Position numbers and translations under genes: made by a program
In this document: positions 7,575 through 51,514 of the stretch, piece by piece
Position numbering within the stretch: position 1 is the first letter of the stretch
How the letters are laid out: the number at the start of each line of letters is the position of its first letter
The notes under the pieces: generated by a model
What the model was told of the DNA's origin: nothing
Databases searched by the model: none
The model's input: only the letters and a program-made list of their open reading frames with translations
Sequence record: PZ543597.1
Strand: one strand, 5' to 3'
Length of the DNA: 64,000 nucleotides
From: a phage

Positions 7575-8579
7575 TTAAAATGTAAACAGAATATTGATTT
7601 CTTCTGTCTGATCCATTGCCATGATAATAGGTGGCCTATTTTCCATATAAATCATTTCGCCCGAATGCCTCATTAAATCTTCTGGATCATAATAATCCTT
7701 TTCAGCTTTAACATTTGGGTCATTTGGATGAGCTTTAGCTTCAAGAGGATTTGTGATTATTGATATTTGTCTAAATCCTTTATTTCCTGGCAATGCAGCA
7801 TCAGGAAAGTAAACTGAATCTAAATATGCTTTAAAACGGATAGTATTTGCCTTAACCCGGTAAATTAATCCAAAATCATCTTGTTGCCAAGTGAGATTAT
7901 CTTCATACCCCCATCTAGTTGGGTCTTCTTTTAATTCCTCAGGCCAAGGAACTACGATATATTCATTTGTGCATCTATTTATAGATACATCGGGCGGAAT
8001 CTCAAAAAGATATTCCCAAACATATCCGTCTCCAGGTTCGATTGTTCCTTCCGCATCTCCTCGACCTTCAGGAGGAGTCATTGACCTAACAGAAGGAGTC
8101 CATTTTCCGCCTAATTTGAGGCATTCATCCTTATTAGTTAAAGATGCTATTGAACACATTCCGGTATCAGGAACATCTAAACAACGATATACTAACCAGC
8201 CTGCGCCTGATTCAGTAGCGTTGTAAGGAGCTGAGTTACACACTACAATATCGTTAATTCTAAATGTGTATGGATCCGGATATCTAGTATCTCCCCAATC
8301 TCTGCGAGGAATAACAGCATCAAGCATTGATGGAAGAACTTTTACTGTTCCCATCATATGCGTCCACATGTCAGTTACGCCTAATACAGAATCGGTTGGA
8401 TAAGGTGGGGCAAAGCCCACCTCATTTTCATTTGATGACCACGGTTCTGATCTTCCAAATGTGATAAAGATAGTGTTTTTATCCGGACCACTTCCAATTG
8501 AATTATAAAAATTCAGCATTTTTTCTGTTCTAAATTTTGAAGTAACTATCGCACGATAGATAACACTTGAATCATTCAT
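7575..8579 (-). CDS. 8: baseplate wedge protein gp8
   Basis: 334-aa ORF, same length as T4 gp8; synteny. Confidence 0.9.
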   Translation of the reverse strand: MNDSSVIYRAIVTSKFRTEKMLNFYNSIGSGPDKNTIFITFGRSEPWSSNENEVGFAPPYPTDSVLGVTDMWTHMMGTVKVLPSMLDAVIPRRDWGDTRYPDPYTFRINDIVVCNSAPYNATESGAGWLVYRCLDVPDTGMCSIASLTNKDECLKLGGKWTPSVRSMTPPEGRGDAEGTIEPGDGYVWEYLFEIPPDVSINRCTNEYIVVPWPEELKEDPTRWGYEDNLTWQQDDFGLIYRVKANTIRFKAYLDSVYFPDAALPGNKGFRQISIITNPLEAKAHPNDPNVKAEKDYYDPEDLMRHSGEMIYMENRPPIIMAMDQTEEINILFTF

Positions 8580-10212
8580 CTATTTTAACCTGTGTTGGAT
8601 TTTCAGGGTCTCTTGGATTTCCTATATTATCTTTTAGACGTTTATTAACTAAATCCCTAAATTGCGCAAATGTTGTTCCAGAAGCATCAAATAGGGGACT
8701 CATTAATTTACGTCGTTCAGACGGCAATTGACCTTGAAATATTGAATTATTATTTTCAGCATTATAGTCATCAGGAAGAGGATATTCTACACCAGCCATT
8801 GGGCCAGGCTCATAAATTGCTTCGCCTGTTACTGAATCATACTCAATTTCACCGGTTGGAGTTAATTTAGCTACTCTATCAGCATATTCAGTAGGCAATC
8901 CAGAATCCCATTTATAGTTTTTGTATTTATTAATTATAGTCTCTGTATGTTTAAGAGTTAAACCAACATTAATAAACATCGTTAAAAGGGTAATTGCTAT
9001 AAATCCAAATCCTACTGGATGAACAAAACGAATAACGTCAGATTTCCAGCGGGAAGAAGGTAAATTGGATTTAATTTTCATTACATAGTATGATCTACTT
9101 CTATTAATATAGTCTATATTGTTTTGAAGCAAATCCTTTCCTTTAACTCCACGAATAATTTCGCCTTCAAAACTAGGGAGTCTTTCTGCTTTAACTTCTT
9201 GACCAGCAATTAATCTTCCCAAAAGATTATGAATAGTTACGGTCCATTGCAATTTACCATTAGAATAACTTCTTTCTATATAAGTAACATTACATCTTCC
9301 TGTGGCTGTATAAATCGTTTGTCCTACTAAATCTTCAGTCAAAGAATCAGATTGAACGATTATGTCATATTCAGTACCAGCCCCAGATTCAATTTCAATT
9401 TCAACTTCTTCATTATAAAGAACTTTAAAAAGAAATTTGTATGATGCTTCAATTCCTTTAGTAGAATAAAAATCATAACTACGTGATTCAAAAAATCTTG
9501 CAACAGCATCACGTTTGTCAGCATTTAAATAAATGTTTCTTTTATATATCTCTGACCACAAATATTCCCACGCATGCTCTTCTCGTGGATACTGATTACG
9601 AATTAAATTTCGTAAATTATTATACTGAGTTCCGTATCCGTCAGAAAGATATTGAATATATGCTTCACAAAATGCCTCAAAATTCGAATCCTGCAACAAA
9701 TAAGAATCAGGCATCATTGTGCCAATTAATGGTCTTAAATCAGGGTCAGCTAATCCATGCTCTTCTTCTGGCGACCAAGGAGTCTCATGCTCTTGGTTTT
9801 GTAAAAATGCTTTTAAAAATACTCCAGTCGGCTTCCAAATAATTTCTACTGTATCTCTCACACGATAGTTAAAATCATAATAAGAAATTATTTCACCAGA
9901 AGATTTATAAAAAAGCATCCCAGACGCATATTTTTTAAATCCCGTGAATTTAACATTTGGCATTACTATCGTACAATCACCATCATCCCAGTATTCATGA
10001 ACTAATCTATCTGGTGATGTTTCCGGAATATTTTCTATAACTTTAGTGTATTTTAAATCAGCATAAACTACTACAGCTCTATTAGAGTTGTTTATCCAGC
10101 ACCGTGTATTAGACTTTTTAGACCAGTTAAAGAATGGTTCTGCATAGTATTTCATTGGCTGAGGCGTAAAAGTTTCCCAATCAGACTTTTCATCTGCTAT
10201 AAATGCCATCAT
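8572..10212 (-). CDS. 7: baseplate wedge protein gp7, C-terminal fragment (gene split by tandem duplication)
   Basis: 546-aa ORF beginning MMAFIADEKSDWETF..., which repeats the last 55 aa of the upstream fragment; the two pieces minus the repeat total about 1027 aa, close to T4 gp7. Confidence 0.8.
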   Translation of the reverse strand: MMAFIADEKSDWETFTPQPMKYYAEPFFNWSKKSNTRCWINNSNRAVVVYADLKYTKVIENIPETSPDRLVHEYWDDGDCTIVMPNVKFTGFKKYASGMLFYKSSGEIISYYDFNYRVRDTVEIIWKPTGVFLKAFLQNQEHETPWSPEEEHGLADPDLRPLIGTMMPDSYLLQDSNFEAFCEAYIQYLSDGYGTQYNNLRNLIRNQYPREEHAWEYLWSEIYKRNIYLNADKRDAVARFFESRSYDFYSTKGIEASYKFLFKVLYNEEVEIEIESGAGTEYDIIVQSDSLTEDLVGQTIYTATGRCNVTYIERSYSNGKLQWTVTIHNLLGRLIAGQEVKAERLPSFEGEIIRGVKGKDLLQNNIDYINRSRSYYVMKIKSNLPSSRWKSDVIRFVHPVGFGFIAITLLTMFINVGLTLKHTETIINKYKNYKWDSGLPTEYADRVAKLTPTGEIEYDSVTGEAIYEPGPMAGVEYPLPDDYNAENNNSIFQGQLPSERRKLMSPLFDASGTTFAQFRDLVNKRLKDNIGNPRDPENPTQVKIDE

Positions 10213-10231
10213 ATGATAATGCTTATCAGCT
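10063..10231. repeat. tandem duplication copy 1 (169 bp) inside gene 7
   Basis: ataaactactacagctct...gcttatcagct read directly from the sequence; identical to 10232-10400. Confidence 0.95.
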
Positions 10232-11839
10232 ATAAACTACTACAGCTCTATTAGAGTTGTTTATCCAGCACCGTGTATTAGACTTTTTAGACCAGTTAAA
10301 GAATGGTTCTGCATAGTATTTCATTGGCTGAGGCGTAAAAGTTTCCCAATCAGACTTTTCATCTGCTATAAATGCCATCATATGATAATGCTTATCAGCT
10401 AACCATTCACGAGGAAATTCATATTTAACGGCACCGATTAACTGATATTTTGCTACAGTTTCAGGGTCATTAACAACGTTATCATTTAAAAATTTAAAAT
10501 TACTCGAAGATAGAGAAACTAATTTACCATCAGTTGACATATTCGCATACCCAGGTTGAATACGTCTTCTTTCTTCTTCAGTGTTGCCAAAAACTCTTTT
10601 CCACGTTTTTGTGTCATGATTTAAAACATATATTCCTTTATCAGTAGAATCAATTATTTTTGACGTTCTAGGATTAGCATTTAATGTTTCAACTTCACCG
10701 ATAATAAGAGCAAAAACTTTATCACCAATAGAATCCATTTTATAGCATACTGCTTTAGGATTTCCAGTTATAGTCATTGTATCAGGTTCAAATAGCCTTT
10801 CCGAATATGTTGGAGATAATGGATCAGAATCTATAGGTGCATTGCTCGTTTTTATATATCTAACTTTATCTCTGGCAACAACATAGATATAATCATCCGT
10901 ACAAGTAATGGCTTCAGCTATACGATATACATTCGCTGGTAAAGTCGCATAAGTACCAAAGATTTCTACATCAAATCCTAAATGTAACTGGTCGCCAAGT
11001 TTAGCAAATGTTATATCCTGCGAACTGAATCTGACATCATCTGCTGACCATCTAACGTCAGTCGATTTACGGCCATAGAAAATCTTGTCGTATCCTAGAA
11101 CGTATGTTGTGTTCGCAGATTGGTAATATACTGTCTTAGATAAAGGATATCCTACACGGTCATTGAAGAGCTTTACGGCTTTCCAGGTTTGTCCTTTATC
11201 ATTGGATACTTTAACTACAGGTTGATAGCGCTCAAAAAGATATAGAATTCCTTCTGATTCCATCAAATAAACTCGGTTAATATCCTTACATACTTGCTGA
11301 ATAGAACCTTGTATTTCATGATACTCATTTTCACCAATAATAAAATTACTTATTGATGAAACATCAACATACGATGGGCTGAATTGAAATGATTCATTCA
11401 TCAATGCAGCCATTATAGTGTCATTGTTAAAATTAACATAATCAGAATTATTAAGAGTAAATTTTTCCTGAATGAATTTATTGGCTAATTGCATTTCAAT
11501 CATGTTTTGAAATGTATAAGCATTTGTAGCAAAAGTTTCAAACTCTTCGGTATAAATCCAATCAGACTGCTCAAAATCTTGCGCAGCTGTAGCTACTCTG
11601 ATAATGTATGATGTCAATGGGTCAGCATCATCAAAAAAGAAGCTGTTATTTGCAGTATATCCTAAGTTAATCCATCTGTATTGATTACTCGGGAGATTTT
11701 CCCCCGAGTTCGTTTTTGTCTCAGCGATTTCTACAAAATAGTAGAAATTAGCACCAACGTCATCCCAGCGTACTTGCACCTGATTTGCGGATAACTTGGA
11801 AATTCTGAGACTAGTGACTGAAGGTGCTTTTACTGTCAT
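10226..11839 (-). CDS. 7: baseplate wedge protein gp7, N-terminal fragment (terminated by frameshift at the duplication junction)
   Basis: 537-aa ORF ending ...NSNRAVVVYS*; the stop arises directly at the junction of the two 169-bp copies. Confidence 0.8.
   Translation of the reverse strand: MTVKAPSVTSLRISKLSANQVQVRWDDVGANFYYFVEIAETKTNSGENLPSNQYRWINLGYTANNSFFFDDADPLTSYIIRVATAAQDFEQSDWIYTEEFETFATNAYTFQNMIEMQLANKFIQEKFTLNNSDYVNFNNDTIMAALMNESFQFSPSYVDVSSISNFIIGENEYHEIQGSIQQVCKDINRVYLMESEGILYLFERYQPVVKVSNDKGQTWKAVKLFNDRVGYPLSKTVYYQSANTTYVLGYDKIFYGRKSTDVRWSADDVRFSSQDITFAKLGDQLHLGFDVEIFGTYATLPANVYRIAEAITCTDDYIYVVARDKVRYIKTSNAPIDSDPLSPTYSERLFEPDTMTITGNPKAVCYKMDSIGDKVFALIIGEVETLNANPRTSKIIDSTDKGIYVLNHDTKTWKRVFGNTEEERRRIQPGYANMSTDGKLVSLSSSNFKFLNDNVVNDPETVAKYQLIGAVKYEFPREWLADKHYHMMAFIADEKSDWETFTPQPMKYYAEPFFNWSKKSNTRCWINNSNRAVVVYS
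10232..10400. repeat. tandem duplication copy 2 (169 bp) inside gene 7
   Basis: Identical to 10063-10231 by base-by-base comparison; a 169-bp period is not a multiple of 3. Confidence 0.95.
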
Positions 11840-13818
11840 TGTGATATAGGCTCCAAATCGATAGTTAAGTATTGTGGACGTAAGTCATTTTCAAATACAA
11901 TCAGTGAACCGTCGCGAGTAAAGATAACATCATCGGTTGGGTCAGAATATAATTCGATGGTCTGAACTTCAAATTTTTCAGATGTTAAATTAATTTTAGC
12001 GATATTCCAATAAATCACATCAGCTGGATAATTTATTTCACCGATAACATAGTATTTGTCGCGTCCATCAGAATTTGCTAATTTGTTAAAATCGTTGCCT
12101 GTATATGGCTGAATGTTTTCATTTTCTGTAACATCGCCAGAAGCAAATGGACCAATAATAACTTTACCAATTCCTTTAGAATCTCGGTCTGTTGATACTA
12201 TGCGAACGTCATATAATACATCTTCTTCTAAACCAGTATCAGGATTTACAACCTTTCGTCCAGAATTAAATGAAAACGTATTAGATTCCATAGAACGATC
12301 TTTTATTTGATTATTGTATTTAATACCTGCTTCAGGCGTTTTATAGAAGTTTTGTACTTCACGAACAATTTGAATTGTCGCTGATGAGCCAATGATAGAA
12401 TGATCTGCATCATCTACATATGTCAACATCTTAGATTTAGCGAAAGATGAATTAAAAATTTCTACGTCTTCGGTATAATAACGATCAATTTTATCAATTA
12501 TTTGACCTTCGAGCCACTGTTCGGATTCTTGCAGCTTATTTAAAGCATATGTGACTTTTAAATTAGTCTTAATAAAAAGATAATTAGGAGAAATAATTGA
12601 TGGCGTAATAGGAGCTAAATTATAGTCTTTGAGATAATTTTTAATATCTTCACGCTGTACAGTAGTTAAATACAGACCTGATTTAGGTTTAGCAGCAATA
12701 AATGCATAACCAGGTTTAGTAGAATCAGTGAAAGTCTGAACTGCTTGAATAATAGAACCAAATCTCTCTGAAACGAATGTATCATAGTCAGTCGCAGTTA
12801 CGCAGCGTTGCTGGGTTTCGCGTTTAATAGTACCCAATTCGCGGATACGCTCAATATCTTCTGGATCACCGCCGCCATCTGCCCCAACAAAATCTGGGTC
12901 ATCGTTTGGATTTTCATTAATATTGATGACAGTTATATTTGTTAATGTATCTGCGTATGAAAATCCGACTGCTCCGTTCGCGTCAGCACCATTAGTACTG
13001 ATGTACTCAATAACAATCGTAGAGTTCTGAGTAGGTTTAAGACCTCCGATATAATTAGCGGTCAAAGCTCCTTCAGAAGCATTAACAGAAATTTCACCTT
13101 CACCAAAATAGAATTCAGTATTTCCATCAATAGTTTCACGCATGTAGTAAATTGTCGATGTAGAACCAGCATGAACCATTGACTTTCTTGTCCAGTTAAT
13201 CCATTCTGCTCCATCAACGTATAATTTAACCTGGTTTCTATCAATATTTTTATCATAAATGATAATAGGTGTTAATTTATCATAAATGATTTCAGTTCTT
13301 ACTATACGTCCCTGGGCCAATTTTAAACGCGGAAAATATTGGTTATTTTTATCACGAATAGCAATAACGTCTTCGGTAGAAACGAAGTTATATGGATTAA
13401 CAGAAGTATCTTTTGCATATGCTAAAAAGCGAGTTCCGCGAGGAATAGTAATGTAATTCCTATTCAATGCGTCGGTGCATGTTAACATAATTTCGGTCTG
13501 CGCAGCGGATTTTGAAGTAGGTAAATATCCGTTATCTTGTGCAGCTTGAACAACTGAACTTCGTAAGTTAGCAGTACGCATAAAGCTTTCATACACAGCA
13601 GCATTACCAAACTGTTGAATGTACAGCGTATTATAAGCCAAAAGGTCGCACAGAACGTTTAATCTTGAGCCTTCAAAATCATAATCCAAAAATTCATTTT
13701 GGCCATTAAGCCATTCAATGAGGTTTTGTTTTATTTCAGCAAATGTACCCCCGACGAATATCTCGGGAATAGCATTTGCTGTTCTTGTTAATTGATAATT
13801 TACAGGGGTATTTGCCAT
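11836..13818 (-). CDS. 6: baseplate wedge protein gp6
   Basis: 660-aa ORF, same length as T4 gp6; synteny. Confidence 0.9.
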   Translation of the reverse strand: MANTPVNYQLTRTANAIPEIFVGGTFAEIKQNLIEWLNGQNEFLDYDFEGSRLNVLCDLLAYNTLYIQQFGNAAVYESFMRTANLRSSVVQAAQDNGYLPTSKSAAQTEIMLTCTDALNRNYITIPRGTRFLAYAKDTSVNPYNFVSTEDVIAIRDKNNQYFPRLKLAQGRIVRTEIIYDKLTPIIIYDKNIDRNQVKLYVDGAEWINWTRKSMVHAGSTSTIYYMRETIDGNTEFYFGEGEISVNASEGALTANYIGGLKPTQNSTIVIEYISTNGADANGAVGFSYADTLTNITVININENPNDDPDFVGADGGGDPEDIERIRELGTIKRETQQRCVTATDYDTFVSERFGSIIQAVQTFTDSTKPGYAFIAAKPKSGLYLTTVQREDIKNYLKDYNLAPITPSIISPNYLFIKTNLKVTYALNKLQESEQWLEGQIIDKIDRYYTEDVEIFNSSFAKSKMLTYVDDADHSIIGSSATIQIVREVQNFYKTPEAGIKYNNQIKDRSMESNTFSFNSGRKVVNPDTGLEEDVLYDVRIVSTDRDSKGIGKVIIGPFASGDVTENENIQPYTGNDFNKLANSDGRDKYYVIGEINYPADVIYWNIAKINLTSEKFEVQTIELYSDPTDDVIFTRDGSLIVFENDLRPQYLTIDLEPISQ

Positions 13819-14678: not shown

Positions 14679-16377
14679 TTGTGTATTGACCAGATGAAAT
14701 AGAACTCATAGATGCCATTTTTTCTGTCCAATCGCCACCAACGTCCCAATCAACTGTCCCAGCAACTTTCCAAGAAAGATTTCCATTTACTGTATTAGTC
14801 TGATTTCCTTCAACTAAAGTGGTAGCATCCCCTTTAACTGTAATGTCAGCATTACCTTCAACTACAATAGTAACATTACCTTTGACTAGGATAGTTCCAT
14901 TACCTTCAACTGTCTTAGTTTCATCGCCACGGACAAATATTGTATTGCTTCCATCTATCTGGTGAAGACGATTATCCATGTTGTAATAAATTTCTGATCC
15001 ACCGACGTTAGTCTTTTTATCACCGGCTACCAAAAAATTACCATCAGCGTTGGTTATATCATACAAATTATCAACAGTTTTTCTTGTTCTTCTTCCTGAC
15101 GGTGATACTTCTTCATAAGTTCCAGTTGGATGAACTAATCTGTATCGTTCTTGCCCAGGGGTATCATCAAATTCCTGAATATGTCCACTTTCAGTTTCCA
15201 TTGTATGCACATAAGGATATTCACCTTTATATGAAGAAACTGGTTCTTTGAATAAAATTCTCGAGTCATTTGGAATAGGAGGGTCAGCAGGGTCAGAAGA
15301 TTTAGCTACAGTAGCAGCCATTGCTGATAGAGACTTAGCTGGGGTTTTCACTTCAACGCCATATGATTCTAAATTTCCCGTAAGAATAATCATGGTAACA
15401 CGGGATGCACGGCCTTTTGTTTGTTGATACCATAATGAATCACGACCGGCTTTATACGCTTTTTCCCAATCTCCTGCTAACATAGCAGTTAACATTGTGT
15501 TAAATTTAGCTACACCACCAACACCCATCTGAAATGCCATATTTTCTAACGCCATTTGACGAGAACGGTTGACAGCTTGCCAGACTGGTCCTACTTTAGA
15601 ATGTGATTTAATGTCCCGTTGCATATCAGCCAAATCACGTTCAAATAAAGTCGTCGCCTCTTCCATCGTAATAGAACCTGGGTTTCCAGTAATTTCACGA
15701 CCAACTTGTTTTGATAAAACTTTATTAATTTGAGCCATATCACGAACTGGCTGCTTTATGATAAGATGACCAATACCAATTGTCGGATATCCTTCAGTAT
15801 CCCAATAAACTTTTAGTCTTAATCCTTCATCACGGCGAAGCATGTCAGCCATTGACATATTTGGATTATCATCGGTTGGAATCTCTGATAGTGGTCTATC
15901 ATCGGGATTTATTGCAGTGTCTAAGTTACTATCTTGGATAATGTTAGAAGACGAATCATATCCTACTTCTCCGCCTTGGTTTAATACATTAGTATCATTT
16001 CCTAAACGTCTAGGATATTGCCCAGTTGGGTCAGAAAATCCTTCAAGTCTATTCGGTTTTTCGCGAACTATTCCACCATACGTGCCAAGGACAATTCCGT
16101 TAGTTTTCCATTTGTCTAAAAAATGACCATAAACTCTAGTTCCTTCTACCGGTCCAGTAACAGAACCTCCAATTCCAGACATTGCTGCAGAAGTTATAGG
16201 TTGAATAACTGACATCCATGGTAATTTTTCAGTTGGAATACCCATTACATCGCCTTGTGCTCTTTGAGGTGGATGCAGACCAACCACACGAACACGAACA
16301 CGACCTAATTTTAATGGGTCCATTCTATCTTCAACAACACCAACAAACCAATTAAGGTTATTACTTATCATTTCCAT
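14650..16377 (-). CDS. 5: baseplate hub / tail-associated lysozyme gp5
   Basis: 575-aa ORF with an internal lysozyme domain (RRDEGLRLKVYWDTEGYPTIGIGHLI) and a C-terminal VxGxxxxx beta-helix repeat. Confidence 0.95.
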   Translation of the reverse strand: MEMISNNLNWFVGVVEDRMDPLKLGRVRVRVVGLHPPQRAQGDVMGIPTEKLPWMSVIQPITSAAMSGIGGSVTGPVEGTRVYGHFLDKWKTNGIVLGTYGGIVREKPNRLEGFSDPTGQYPRRLGNDTNVLNQGGEVGYDSSSNIIQDSNLDTAINPDDRPLSEIPTDDNPNMSMADMLRRDEGLRLKVYWDTEGYPTIGIGHLIIKQPVRDMAQINKVLSKQVGREITGNPGSITMEEATTLFERDLADMQRDIKSHSKVGPVWQAVNRSRQMALENMAFQMGVGGVAKFNTMLTAMLAGDWEKAYKAGRDSLWYQQTKGRASRVTMIILTGNLESYGVEVKTPAKSLSAMAATVAKSSDPADPPIPNDSRILFKEPVSSYKGEYPYVHTMETESGHIQEFDDTPGQERYRLVHPTGTYEEVSPSGRRTRKTVDNLYDITNADGNFLVAGDKKTNVGGSEIYYNMDNRLHQIDGSNTIFVRGDETKTVEGNGTILVKGNVTIVVEGNADITVKGDATTLVEGNQTNTVNGNLSWKVAGTVDWDVGGDWTEKMASMSSISSGQYTIDGSRIDIG

Positions 16378-19687: not shown

Positions 19688-20372
<685 letters not shown>

Positions 20373-20385
20373 TTTCACAAAGTTG

Positions 20386-20414
20386 TTTACATAGGGTTTT
20401 AGTTGTGATACTAT
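20386..20414 (+). promoter_or_regulatory. T4-type early promoter (-35 TTTACA, 17-bp spacer, -10 TACTAT)
   Basis: Preceded by ttcacaaagttg; a 7-bp inverted repeat atagggt/accctat brackets the spacer and -10. Confidence 0.65.
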
Positions 20415-20448
20415 TACCCTATCAAAACAAAACCAAATGGAAATCAAA

Positions 20449-20682
20449 ATGAAAACTTACCAAGAATTTATTGCTGAAACTGCTGATGTAAAAGTTGAGT
20501 TTATTTACACTGGCAAGAAAGATAAAATGGGTGAAATGCCTCATGGAGTTCTTCGTGATGCATTAGATAATTTCGGTCAACTCGCCGCAGAAGATTACGG
20601 TGATAAAATTGTTGTTACTGGTCCTGCTGCAGTTATTGAAAAATGGGCAGCAGAAAATAAATCAATTTTTCGTAAAAAATAA
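20449..20682 (+). CDS. internal-protein-like gene with capsid targeting sequence (ipI locus)
   Basis: Begins MKTYQEFIAE, the T-even capsid targeting sequence cleaved by the prohead protease; the rest of the 77-aa protein does not match T4 IpI as recalled. Confidence 0.6.
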   Translation: MKTYQEFIAETADVKVEFIYTGKKDKMGEMPHGVLRDALDNFGQLAAEDYGDKIVVTGPAAVIEKWAAENKSIFRKK

Positions 20683-39741: not shown

Positions 39742-39891
39742 ATGAAAATTACACCAATTGAAGTAAAAAAGTTGATTGACACAGAAGAAATTTCAGAGTG
39801 TTTTGAAAGTTTCTTAGAAGATGCAACTGAAGATAATGCAGTTTATCTCGCTCAGAAAATTATCGAAACTTATTTGGAGAAGAATCAATGA
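39742..39891 (+). CDS. hypothetical small acidic protein
   Basis: 49 aa from an ATG after aaaacaaa; the track ORF starts upstream inside the promoter. Confidence 0.4.
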   Translation: MKITPIEVKKLIDTEEISECFESFLEDATEDNAVYLAQKIIETYLEKNQ

Positions 39892-40151
39892 CAGTTTACG
39901 TAGATGTTTTAATGAATCATGGATGGAAACTTCGCGGTCATCCAACTAAAAATTGTCATATGTTCACTGATGGAGATATTGAAGAGCTTCATGAAATGGC
40001 AGAAGCAATAGGAATGAAACGTTCTTGGTTTCAAGATAAACGCATTAAACATTATGACTTACACGCTCGCCGACGCCAAAAAGCTGTAGAACTTGGAGCT
40101 GTAGAAGTATCTCGCCGTGAAGCAGTAAAAATTTGGCGAACGTTAAAATAA
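39888..40151 (+). CDS. DUF4031-like small protein
   Basis: 87 aa, MTVYVDVLMNHGWKLRGHPTKNCHMFTDGDIEELHEMAEAIGMKRSWFQDKRIKHYDL...; recalled as matching the DUF4031 family pattern. Confidence 0.45.
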   Translation: MTVYVDVLMNHGWKLRGHPTKNCHMFTDGDIEELHEMAEAIGMKRSWFQDKRIKHYDLHARRRQKAVELGAVEVSRREAVKIWRTLK

Positions 40152-49233: not shown

Positions 49234-51047
49234 CAATTGAAAAAGAAATTGAAGGATTGATTCATAAAACTAATAAAGACCTTTTGAACGAGAATGCTAA
49301 TAAAGATTCTCGTGTTTTTCCAACTCAACGGGACCTTATGGCTGGTATTGTGTCTAAACACATTGCCAAAAATATGGTCCCGTCTTTTATTATGAAAGCG
49401 CATGAAAGCGGAATTATTCATTTTCATGATATTGATTATTCCCCTGCTCTTCCATTTACTAATTGCTGTTTAGTAGATTTAAAAGGAATGCTTGAGAACG
49501 GATTTAAGCTCGGTAATGCACAGATTGAAACTCCTAAATCAATTGGCGTTGCTACTGCAATTATGGCACAAATTACTGCACAGGTTGCTTCTCATCAATA
49601 TGGCGGAACGACTTTTGCGAATGTAGATAAAGTCCTTTCTCCTTATGTTAAACGCACCTACGCAAAACACATTGAGGATGCAGAAAAATGGCAAATCGCT
49701 GATGCATTGAATTATGCCCAATCTAAAACAGAAAAAGACGTATACGATGCATTCCAAGCTTATGAATATGAAGTAAATACTCTCTTTAGTTCAAACGGAC
49801 AAACGCCTTTTGTAACAATTACATTTGGTACGGGAACTGACTGGACTGAACGAATGATTCAGAAAGCAATTCTGAAAAATCGTATTAAAGGTCTCGGTCG
49901 TGATGGGATAACTCCTATTTTCCCTAAGCTTGTTATGTTTGTTGAAGAAGGTGTTAATCTTTATAAAGACGATCCGAACTATGATATTAAGCAGCTTGCT
50001 CTAGAGTGTGCAAGCAAAAGAATGTATCCTGACATCATTTCGGCTAAGAACAATAAAGCTATCACAGGTTCATCTATTCCTGTTTCTCCAATGGGTTGCC
50101 GTAGTTTCTTGGGTGTATGGAAAGATTCGACTGGTAATGAAATTCTTGATGGACGTAATAATCTTGGTGTTGTAACACTGAATCTTCCTCGTATTGCATT
50201 AGATTCTTATATTGGAACACAGTTCAATGAACAGAAATTTGCCGAATTGTTCAATGAACGAATGGATTTATGTTTTGAAGCATTGATGTGTAGAATTAGT
50301 TCCTTAAAAGGAGTTAAAGCTACTGTTGCTCCTATTCTTTATCAAGAAGGTGCATTCGGGGTTCGTCTTAAACCTGATGACGATATAATTGAGTTATTTA
50401 AAAACGGTAGAAGTTCAGTGTCCCTAGGATACATTGGTATTCACGAATTGAATATTCTTGTCGGTCGTGATATTGGACAAGAAATTTTAACTAAAATGAA
50501 TACTCATCTTAAGCAGTGGACTGAAAGAACCGGTTTTGCTTTTAGCTTGTATTCTACTCCTGCGGAAAACCTGTGCTATCGCTTCTGTAAACTTGATACC
50601 GAAAAATATGGAAGTGTAAAAGATGTTACTGATAAAGGCTGGTACACTAATAGTTTCCATGTTTCAGTAGAAGAAAATATTACTCCGTTTGAAAAGATTT
50701 CTCGCGAAGCACCGTATCATTTCATTGCAACAGGTGGTCACATTTCTTATGTTGAACTTCCTGATATGAAAAATAACCTAAAAGGTCTTGAGGCTGTATG
50801 GGATTATGCCGCACAACATTTAGATTATTTTGGTGTTAATATGCCAGTAGATAAATGTTTTACGTGTGGAAGTACCCATGAAATGACTCCTACTGAAAAC
50901 GGATTTGTTTGTTCTATTTGTGGAGAAACTGATCCTAAAAAGATGAACACTATAAGAAGAACTTGTGGTTATTTGGGAAATCCGAACGAACGCGGATTTA
51001 ATCTTGGCAAAAATAAAGAAATCATGCATAGGGTTAAACACCAATGA
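49230..51047 (+). CDS. nrdD: anaerobic ribonucleoside-triphosphate reductase
   Basis: 605-aa uninterrupted ORF with C-terminal zinc ribbon and glycyl-radical motif RRTCGYLG. Confidence 0.95.
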   Translation: MTIEKEIEGLIHKTNKDLLNENANKDSRVFPTQRDLMAGIVSKHIAKNMVPSFIMKAHESGIIHFHDIDYSPALPFTNCCLVDLKGMLENGFKLGNAQIETPKSIGVATAIMAQITAQVASHQYGGTTFANVDKVLSPYVKRTYAKHIEDAEKWQIADALNYAQSKTEKDVYDAFQAYEYEVNTLFSSNGQTPFVTITFGTGTDWTERMIQKAILKNRIKGLGRDGITPIFPKLVMFVEEGVNLYKDDPNYDIKQLALECASKRMYPDIISAKNNKAITGSSIPVSPMGCRSFLGVWKDSTGNEILDGRNNLGVVTLNLPRIALDSYIGTQFNEQKFAELFNERMDLCFEALMCRISSLKGVKATVAPILYQEGAFGVRLKPDDDIIELFKNGRSSVSLGYIGIHELNILVGRDIGQEILTKMNTHLKQWTERTGFAFSLYSTPAENLCYRFCKLDTEKYGSVKDVTDKGWYTNSFHVSVEENITPFEKISREAPYHFIATGGHISYVELPDMKNNLKGLEAVWDYAAQHLDYFGVNMPVDKCFTCGSTHEMTPTENGFVCSICGETDPKKMNTIRRTCGYLGNPNERGFNLGKNKEIMHRVKHQ

Positions 51048-51514
51048 ATTACGATAGATTTTATCCCTGCGATTTTGTAAATGGCCCTGGATGCAGGGTC
51101 GTTCTTTTCGTTACAGGTTGTTTGCATAAATGTGAAGGGTGTTATAATAAATCAACATGGAATGCTAGAAATGGCGTTCCATTCACTGGTGAAACACTAG
51201 AACAATTAATTGAATGTTTGAATAATGATTATATAGAAGGATTAACTATAACTGGAGGAGACCCTCTTTATCCTGATAACCGAGATGATGTTCATTGCAT
51301 TGTTCAAACGGTAAAAAATCTTTATCCGAATAAAAGCATTTGGTTGTGGACAGGATATAAGTTTGAAGATATTAAACAACTAGAAATGCTTAAATATGTT
51401 GATGTTATTATTGATGGGAAGTATGAGAAAAATCTTCCGACCAAAAAGCTGTGGCGAGGTTCAGATAATCAGCGACTTTGGTCAAATACCGATGGGGTGT
51501 GGAAACATGATTAA
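51044..51514 (+). CDS. nrdG: anaerobic RNR activating enzyme (radical SAM)
   Basis: 156 aa with CLHKCEGC radical-SAM cysteine motif; ATGA-coupled to nrdD. Confidence 0.9.
   Translation: MNYDRFYPCDFVNGPGCRVVLFVTGCLHKCEGCYNKSTWNARNGVPFTGETLEQLIECLNNDYIEGLTITGGDPLYPDNRDDVHCIVQTVKNLYPNKSIWLWTGYKFEDIKQLEMLKYVDVIIDGKYEKNLPTKKLWRGSDNQRLWSNTDGVWKHD

Follow-up and report, generated by a model that had tools for sequence, protein, structure and literature searches.

Gene 7, which encodes the baseplate wedge protein gp7, is not recorded in PZ543597.1 as one uninterrupted ORF of ~1030 aa but as two ORFs (537 and 546 aa), and a perfect tandem duplication of 169 bp lies at the break. The question is whether the second copy belongs to the genome of a functional phage or arose when the sequence was put together. 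The analysis covered a stretch of 64,000 nucleotides of this record (hereafter the window), and all positions refer to it.

The duplicated segment and the two frames of gene 7

Direct comparison of positions 10063-10231 with 10232-10400 gave 169 identical bases out of 169, and the identity claimed in the original prediction was thus reproduced. The match at a period of 169 is 170 nt long, from 10063 to 10232. Tandem Repeats Finder placed the array at 10057-10401 (period 169, 2.0 copies, score 683), and a separate repeat search returned the duplication as a direct repeat with 100% identity. A chance origin of an exact 169-nt repeat is excluded. Elsewhere in the 64 kb there is a single tandem array, a degenerate 24-bp repeat at 14803-14911. 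Gene 7 lies on the minus strand, which the original prediction had left unmentioned; 10232-10400 is therefore the gene-proximal copy. The features of the locus are listed below.

11836-13818, minus strand: gene 6 (baseplate wedge subunit), upstream neighbour, intact
10226-11839, minus strand: N-terminal gene 7 ORF, 537 aa, 61.9 kDa, native residues 1-536 plus Ser
10232-10400, minus strand: copy 1 of the 169-bp unit (the first to be read along the gene), identical to 10063-10231
10231-10232, no strand assigned: duplication junction, on the plus strand ...CTTATCAGCT to its left and ATAAACTAC... to its right; the junction-spanning letters in a second form are ...GATAATGCTTATCAGCT followed by ATAAACTACTACAGCTC...
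10063-10231, minus strand: copy 2 of the unit, read one base out of frame
10207-10212, minus strand: ATG ATG (Met487, Met488), the only plausible restart, 13 nt past the TGA
10057-10062, plus strand: ATCAGC hexamer, immediately left of the unit, read directly from the sequence
8572-10212, minus strand: C-terminal gene 7 ORF, 546 aa, 63.4 kDa, native residues 487-1032
7575-8579, minus strand: gene 8 (baseplate wedge subunit), downstream neighbour, intact

Copy 1 codes in frame for native gp7 residues 480 (third base) to 536 and is the same, without differences, as the single copy of HP3, ES21, and PYPS2T. The unit has a length of 56 codons, but 169 is not a multiple of 3, and the frame meets a stop directly past the junction, as had been predicted. 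The N-terminal ORF ends at TGA (10226-10228), which is followed by TAA (10223-10225), and the second ORF restarts at MMAFIADEK, again in agreement with the earlier claim; the stop codons and the restart ATG are all inside copy 2. The prompt stop is uninformative, because 20-41% of positions give a stop within 2 codons of a shift. The two ORFs jointly encode every gp7 residue, and they have 50 aa (487-536) in common, not 55 as originally counted.

The phrog_964 profile matches both halves, and the N-terminal ORF covers its positions 1-536 of 1030. There is a weak fn3 match at residues 7-89 of the N-terminal ORF, while the C-terminal ORF contains the Pfam domains Gp7_helical, Gp7_5th, and Gp7_6th, with PF21428, PF21427, and PF21456 all over their cut-offs. 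Deletion of one copy gives a single 1032-aa ORF, residues 1-1032 of which were aligned to 1-1032 of T4 gp7 (PDB 5hx2/5iv5) with 2350 bits. The coordinates of this single-copy ORF are the same as those of HP3 gp097, and its place between genes 6 and 8 in the wedge cluster has the coordinates of HP3 gp096-gp098. In the T4 literature, gp7 is an essential and strictly ordered component of the wedge that is needed early in wedge assembly; its loss is lethal, and only six copies are present per virion. The homology to T4 gp7 and this literature agree with the proposal that the split gene is that of an essential wedge protein.

Distribution of the duplication and features of the break

The window is 99% identical to Tequatrovirus phages. 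The best 40 related records match the region in two pieces that span exactly 3401 minus 169 nt, and a one-piece match across the junction was found in none of the 435 matching records. A junction 120-mer was absent from the phages, plasmids, and E. coli genomes searched, and a junction 34-mer was absent from the viral, genome, and metagenome contigs scanned. Two IMG/VR contigs contain a window-specific 42-mer, and neither has the junction. An exact look-up of the two split ORFs in an index of 153 billion genes found neither on record. Among the collections searched, the duplication is private to PZ543597.1. Identity is 100% between the two copies and also between them and the one copy that the nearest relatives have; the event is therefore of zero age. 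The length of gp7 is invariant: in all 58 records of a spread sample reaching down to 76% DNA identity, the gene is one collinear piece and one CDS. General low sequence quality was ruled out, because a comparison of 53 long ORFs with HP3 showed a break in gp7 alone. A chimeric seam was also looked for, and the nearest haplotype does not change in the flanks at the duplication site.

The ATCAGC hexamer near the junction escaped the original prediction. It occurs again at 10225-10230 and 10394-10399, with a spacing of 168 nt against the period of 169, and is 1 nt off both unit ends. The exact microhomology at the junction is 1 bp only (the period match of 170 nt being 169 + 1), and a clean event based on the hexamer would yield an in-frame repeat of 168 bp instead of 169 bp. 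For a random junction, the chance of such a 6-mer no more than 2 nt away is 0.7-0.85%. The position of the stop is another feature of the break. One preprint assigns residues 172-537 to domain III of gp7, and the last native residue of the N-terminal ORF is 536, no more than 1 residue from where this domain ends; the probability of this agreement by chance was estimated at roughly 2-6%. The hexamer and the stop at the reported end of domain III speak against a random join, and the duplication may therefore be real.

Translation of the C-terminal piece would have to begin at Met487, where no Shine-Dalgarno sequence was found: the energy of the anti-Shine-Dalgarno duplex is −0.7 kcal/mol, compared with −3.7 to −9.5 kcal/mol at the real starts of genes 6-10. 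The restart AUG is located in a small hairpin, and a gap of 13 nt separates stop and start, which do not overlap. The arrangement is unlike an evolved split gene because the C-terminal half lacks a ribosome-binding site. Bacteria are known to reinitiate translation after termination at AUGs close by, with an efficiency that drops as the distance between stop and start grows.

Origin of the second copy

Judging from the sequence, an assembly artefact, a defective genome, and a mixed population may all be possible, and so is a real, very recent duplication. Among these causes, an artefact is the most likely, and we put the chances about even that the extra copy is an in-silico join, such as an untrimmed overlap, and that gene 7 of the phage itself is intact. 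The repeat is exact, private, and disruptive, and a single deletion restores the universal gene. We infer that the extra copy arose in the computer and not in the DNA. Two contigs, or the ends of one, overlapping by 169 bp may have been joined with the overlap untrimmed when a circularly permuted T4-type genome was assembled or finished, and subsequent rotation or ordering of the sequence would have made the seam internal. The second copy would then be outside the functional phage genome, and the replicating phage would have a single-copy gene 7 of 1032 aa, as in all relatives. A recognized problem in phage assembly is contigs that contain duplicated regions and exceed 100% of the genome (PMC8785237). 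A structural mis-join fits better than a base-calling error, because the remaining window is clean. A perfect direct repeat of 169 bp is expected to be lost fast through the very active recombination of T4; therefore, a harmful duplication could hardly persist as the consensus.

The zero age, the absence from relatives, the essential and length-invariant nature of gp7, and the C-terminal half without a ribosome-binding site count for an artefact. However, a random seam should be featureless, and ATCAGC is present at the unit ends; the coincidence of the N-terminal ORF end with the domain III boundary also counts against it, as does the site itself, which shows neither a haplotype switch nor any other mark of a seam. 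To our knowledge, neither 169 nor 170 is a default k-mer in common de Bruijn assemblers, and the commonest form of artefact is therefore not matched.

The hexamer favors a molecular origin, and T4-type phages form such duplications continually. The duplication may accordingly be real in the DNA but non-functional, a defective variant that was threaded by the assembler into the consensus. We consider this unlikely. Such a variant could be a minority in the lysate that is complemented by wild-type co-infection, or the non-viable genome of a phage in a mixed or uncultured sample; because the loss of gp7 is lethal, it would need helpers. Assemblies of phages at deep coverage may retain minority junction paths, but a lethal form would be expected to remain very rare in a plaque-derived stock and to enter the consensus only seldom. 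In addition, this explanation leaves the coincidence with the domain boundary unexplained, and the true microhomology of 1 bp is under the 2-13 bp reported for T4 events. Programmed recoding, in which ribosomes would shift by +1 or hop at the junction, regain the frame, and make a single gp7 with an internal repeat of 56 residues, is highly improbable. Nothing specific speaks for it; skipping a single base after TAT (Tyr536) and before the TGA two codons on would be enough. By inspection, TAT AGC TGA allows no re-pairing of tRNA-Tyr or tRNA-Ser in the +1 frame, a Shine-Dalgarno-like stimulator is absent upstream, and the arrangement, being of zero evolutionary age, is missing from every relative searched. 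Frameshifting and bypassing were rejected, since there is no slippery or take-off/landing sequence, no stimulator, and no conservation.

A further possibility, which was not included in the three causes originally proposed, is a real and recent duplication in a phage that is viable with gp7 as two polypeptides. We regard it as doubtful, with about the same probability as the defective variant. The duplication would have arisen by illegitimate (mini-homology) recombination of the T4 type or by template switching, and would have been fixed at a plaque bottleneck. Ribosomes would end the N-terminal piece (domains I-III, residues 1-536 plus Ser) at the TGA, and a fraction of them would reinitiate 13 nt downstream at Met487 to produce a C-terminal piece that consists of 50 redundant residues, domain IV, the helical domain, and domains V and VI. 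Both would join the wedge non-covalently, the N-terminal piece as the peripheral region that binds gp9 and gp10, and the C-terminal piece as the core. This explanation should not be dismissed, because all residues are encoded and the break is at the reported domain boundary. ATCAGC near the junction is consistent with a molecular event, and T4 is documented to form tandem duplications at homologies of 2-13 bp; reinitiation at nearby AUGs is available in bacteria and would have to supply only the six copies per virion. Outside gene 7 the genome is unbroken, which would be expected of a phage that propagates.

However, reinitiation would have to work at an AUG in a hairpin, without a Shine-Dalgarno sequence and across a gap that may weaken it, and the exact homology at the junction is 1 bp, whereas an event at the hexamer would have kept the frame. 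The gp7 of every relative examined is unsplit and unchanged in length. In an alignment of gp7 from eight genera, residues 500-546 are conserved and gap-free, with neither an obvious flexible linker nor a hot spot of indels at 537, and the closest site with indels is 547-552. Among 1.84 billion representative proteins, natural short homologues, which are distant, begin near residue 640-650 and not at 487-537. (A 733-aa homologue that apparently started near 490 was rejected, because its true start corresponds to residue 326.) The domain boundary is taken from one preprint, and AlphaFold2 models of the two fragments had mean pLDDT values of 38 and 36, too low for use; a homologue search with the N-terminal ORF yielded 3 distant fragments only, too few for a deep alignment. 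The sole other split gp7 found, that of phage CF1, is in a record with several split essential genes.

If the second copy is an artefact, the consequences are limited to curation: the record should have one copy and a single gene 7 of 1032 aa, and the split ORFs should not enter protein databases as two "baseplate wedge" families. A real but defective duplication would be one more case of the known tendency of T4-type phages to form short tandem duplications. A new lesson would follow only if a two-piece gp7 supports growth. The essential wedge initiator of 119 kDa would then not be obliged to be one chain between domains III and IV, and its peripheral fibre-sensing part would be covalently separable from the conserved core. 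This would bear on the relay of the fibre signal to the inner baseplate, and the break would be a convenient site for the engineering of gp7.

Comparison with known duplications and split gp7 genes

Citrobacter phage CF1 ERZ-2017 (MG250484.1) also has a gp7 annotated as two CDSs, and the second CDS is likewise 546 aa from the equivalent of Met487. One G is missing from its Trp479 codon, and this lesion is 3-4 nt away from where the 169-bp unit of PZ543597.1 begins. CF1 thus has a 1-nt deletion and no duplication, and its stop and start overlap (ATGA), whereas the duplication leaves a gap of 13 nt. In the CF1 record, gp5, portal gp20, RNA ligase 2, and hoc are split as well, and the record is therefore probably a low-accuracy sequence. 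The relatives of CF1 are intact. CF1 was therefore discounted as independent support for a tolerated break at Met487.

T4 is known for tandem duplications and amplifications that formed at short homologies (rII duplications, Hp17 gene 16-18 amplifications, dmd-tifA amplification, and the CRISPR-escape mini-homology events). The repeat in gene 7 resembles them as a head-to-tail repeat in a Tequatrovirus with a short repeated motif, ATCAGC, at the unit ends. In the documented events, exactly one copy of a homology of 2-13 bp is left at the junction, and the events were selected for benefit. Here, by contrast, the exact homology is only 1 bp, with the hexamer offset by 1 nt (period 169, spacing 168); there is no evident benefit, and an essential ORF is inactivated. 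In-frame duplications of the adhesin domain of gene 37, reportedly described by Tetart and co-workers in 1996, are said to alter the function of the T4 tail fibre. They are likewise small, tandem, and inside a tail structural gene of T4; however, they result in a longer functional protein, while the duplication in gene 7 shifts the frame.

The repeat can also be compared with assembly artefacts. The repeat length of 169 is not a common default k-mer, and a random seam has a near-homology hexamer only ~0.7% of the time, whereas one is present at this junction. In an over-extended contig, the repeat is at the sequence ends; here it is internal to the 64-kb window, and a later rotation or contig join therefore has to be assumed. 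As with an untrimmed overlap or an over-extended contig, the repeat is exact, shows zero divergence, occurs in one record, and breaks a universal ORF, and the canonical gene is obtained again when one copy is removed.

The tandem duplication and its effect on gene 7

As originally predicted, a 169-bp unit is present twice, back to back, in gene 7, the gene for the T4-type baseplate wedge protein gp7. The relevant features are as follows.

10063-10231 and 10232-10400, gene on minus strand: the two copies of the unit, identical at every base
10057-10062 (just before the unit), 10225-10230 and 10394-10399: hexamer ATCAGC
10226-10228 and 10223-10225, minus strand: stop codons TGA and TAA
10207-10212, minus strand: ATG ATG (Met487 and Met488), 13 nt past the stop
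14803-14911: degenerate 24-bp tandem repeat, the only array in the 64 kb besides the 169-bp one

The period-169 match extends for 170 nt, and the exact microhomology at the junction (10231/10232) is 1 bp. Tandem Repeats Finder reported a single array here (10057-10401, period 169, 2.0 copies, score 683), and a repeat search of the region found no further long repeats around the duplication. The 24-bp repeat (4.5 copies, 72% matches) lies within the gene 5 (hub/lysozyme) ORF and presumably represents the repeats of 8 residues in the C-terminal beta-helix of gp5.

The gene order on the minus strand is gene 6, gene 7 and gene 8, and the ORF coordinates match those of phage HP3 as far as the repeat. 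Deleting one copy yields a 1032-aa ORF, which aligns with T4 gp7 (PDB 5hx2/5iv5) from 1-1032 to 1-1032 with 2350 bits. With both copies, residues 1-536 are read first; beyond the junction the frame is off by one base, and a single Ser precedes the stop. The ATG ATG then opens a second ORF, whose 546 aa are those of residues 487-1032. The split ORFs have masses of 61.9 and 63.4 kDa, compared with 119.1 kDa for intact gp7, and every gp7 residue is present across the pair. Translation therefore confirms the predicted loss of frame, stop and downstream restart. The description was correct overall, except for the strand (gene 7 is on the minus strand) and the number of residues common to both ORFs, which is 50 and not 55.

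Relatives of the window

The window is T4-type DNA (genus Tequatrovirus). Over the first 25 kb it shares 99.2-99.4% identity with phages HP3, ES19/ES21, YUEEL01 and a51, and over the following 25 kb 97-98.7% with other Tequatrovirus members; the same genome was not matched among a 50,697-phage collection. A 3.4-kb query matched 681 phage records. Each of the best 40 aligned as two pieces, over a span of exactly 3232 nt (3401 - 169). None of the 435 records matched by a 120-nt junction probe was matched in one piece, and the junction was not found in plasmid or complete E. coli collections or in viral, genome or metagenome contig collections. As far as these searches show, the duplication is private to the window sequence. 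The unit is identical to the lone copy in HP3, ES21 and PYPS2T, and no change of the nearest-relative pattern was seen at the duplication site. The gp7 interior is one collinear piece and one CDS in 58 of 58 spread-sampled records (100% down to 76% DNA identity), with a span of 2951 nt among close relatives and of 2929-2950 nt in the group at ~77% identity; the gene is remarkably length-invariant. The rest of the window is clean, gp7 alone being interrupted among 53 long ORFs compared with HP3.

Other differences from HP3 were observed. At 20357-20469, a 334-bp cassette with one small internal head protein gene is absent relative to HP3 (L001 20185-20631), and the break falls in a repeated promoter/leader motif, GTTTACA...TGATACTAT...ATGAAAACTT, upstream of each internal-protein gene. 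In HP3, a homing endonuclease gene of ~600 bp (L002 24978-25610) separates the genes for the large and small subunits of anaerobic ribonucleotide reductase; this gene is absent from the window (51044-51064). The segment 39716-40208 is not in HP3 and holds an ORF of 87 aa at 39888-40151 with a match to Pfam DUF4031 (E 8e-22). Two IMG/VR contigs (L012 and L013) share an exact 42-mer with this segment.

Position of the break and expression of the second half

The following Pfam domains of gp7 all lie in the C-terminal ORF.

Residues 643-689: helical domain
Residues 766-861: domain V
Residues 920-1012: domain VI

According to a T4 virion preprint of 2026, domain III comprises residues 172-537, holds the fibre connector gp9 and touches gp10. 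The N-terminal ORF end at 536 is essentially this boundary, and the chance of landing so near one of the ~six gp7 boundaries is estimated as 2-6%. AlphaFold models of the two fragments had pLDDT values of 38 and 36, too low to use; an eight-genus gp7 alignment has no gaps at 500-546, the nearest indel site being 547-552; and natural short gp7 homologues among 1.84 billion representative proteins begin at ~residue 640-650, not ~487-537. The boundary at 537 could not be confirmed independently by any of these.

A 733-aa homologue (P0009) aligns from gp7 residue 326 at its first residue to the usual C-terminus, and represents either an incomplete gene call or a further interrupted gp7 in an uncharacterised phage. 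A word-indexed search of 5.8 billion proteins with the N-terminal half returned 3 distant fragments only; gp7 matches elsewhere amounted to ~1,476 phage records by tblastn and 69 in the representative library. The 5.8-billion-protein index seems to lack close T4-type gp7 sequences.

Upstream of Met487 there is no Shine-Dalgarno complementarity (anti-SD duplex energy -0.7 kcal/mol, compared with -3.7 to -9.5 kcal/mol at the true starts of genes 6-10), and the Met487 AUG sits within a small hairpin. Termination-reinitiation at a nearby AUG is known in bacteria, and its efficiency drops with stop-start distance (PMC9841429), which is 13 nt here. Low expression of the C-terminal half might suffice, because a virion requires only six gp7 molecules.

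Origin of the duplication

We give about an even chance to an assembly or finishing artefact of no biological significance. The extra copy may be an untrimmed overlap left when a circularly permuted genome was joined or rotated; a phage annotation guide cautions about such duplicated regions (PMC8785237). The repeat is exact, of zero age and private to one record, it inactivates an essential, strictly length-conserved gene, and the second half is without evolved expression signals. A perfect 169-bp repeat should also be unstable under the T4 recombination system, and would thus be hard to keep if harmful. However, ATCAGC lies close to the junction, the break coincides with the reported domain boundary, 169 bp is an atypical overlap length, and a seam signature is absent at the site.

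A real duplication keeps a modest probability. The original interpretation is supported in part, with the artefact the most likely status. A real duplication tolerated as a two-piece gp7 is unlikely, and one carried by a defective or minority variant and picked up by the assembler is doubtful to a similar degree. Programmed recoding across the junction, which has no support in the sequence, is very improbable.

The linear record of Escherichia phage REP3 (OQ174502.1, 164943-167921) stops 28 nt past the gp7 match, where no feature is annotated; arbitrary assembly breakpoints within the gene 7/8 region therefore do occur in deposited T4-type genomes.

A second split gp7 was found by a spread tblastn sample in Citrobacter phage CF1 ERZ-2017 (MG250484.1).

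Record 84318-87418 (L003 1-4220 and L004): split gp7, annotated as one CDS of 487 aa and one of 546 aa

As in the window, the second CDS has 546 aa and begins at the Met487 equivalent; in CF1, however, the split comes from a 1-nt deletion (the Trp479 codon has lost one G) that lies 3-4 nt from the start of the window's 169-bp unit, and the stop and start overlap (ATGA). Gp7 is intact in the CF1 relatives KM16, Merlin and Moon. The CF1 record also carries split gp5, portal gp20, RNA ligase 2 and hoc; it is therefore likely a low-accuracy sequence with a sequencing error in gp7, and its support for a tolerated split gp7 is weak. The nearness of the two lesions is an unexplained coincidence.

The ATCAGC copies before the unit and next to the junction are spaced 168 nt, the period minus one. 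On the coding strand, the two contexts of the hexamer are TTA-GCTGAT (Leu480-Ala-Asp) and TAT-GCTGAT (Tyr536-Ala-Asp). In this window, 0.7-0.85% of positions taken as random junctions have such a hexamer 2 nt or less away. The hexamer hints at a molecular origin. Tandem duplications and deletions in T4 form at 2-13-bp homologies, one copy of which stays at the junction (PMC9391042, PMC8262927), a pattern that the present junction does not follow. Clean recombination at ATCAGC would give an in-frame 168-bp repeat, whereas the observed 169-bp repeat requires a bulged alignment or an additional base.
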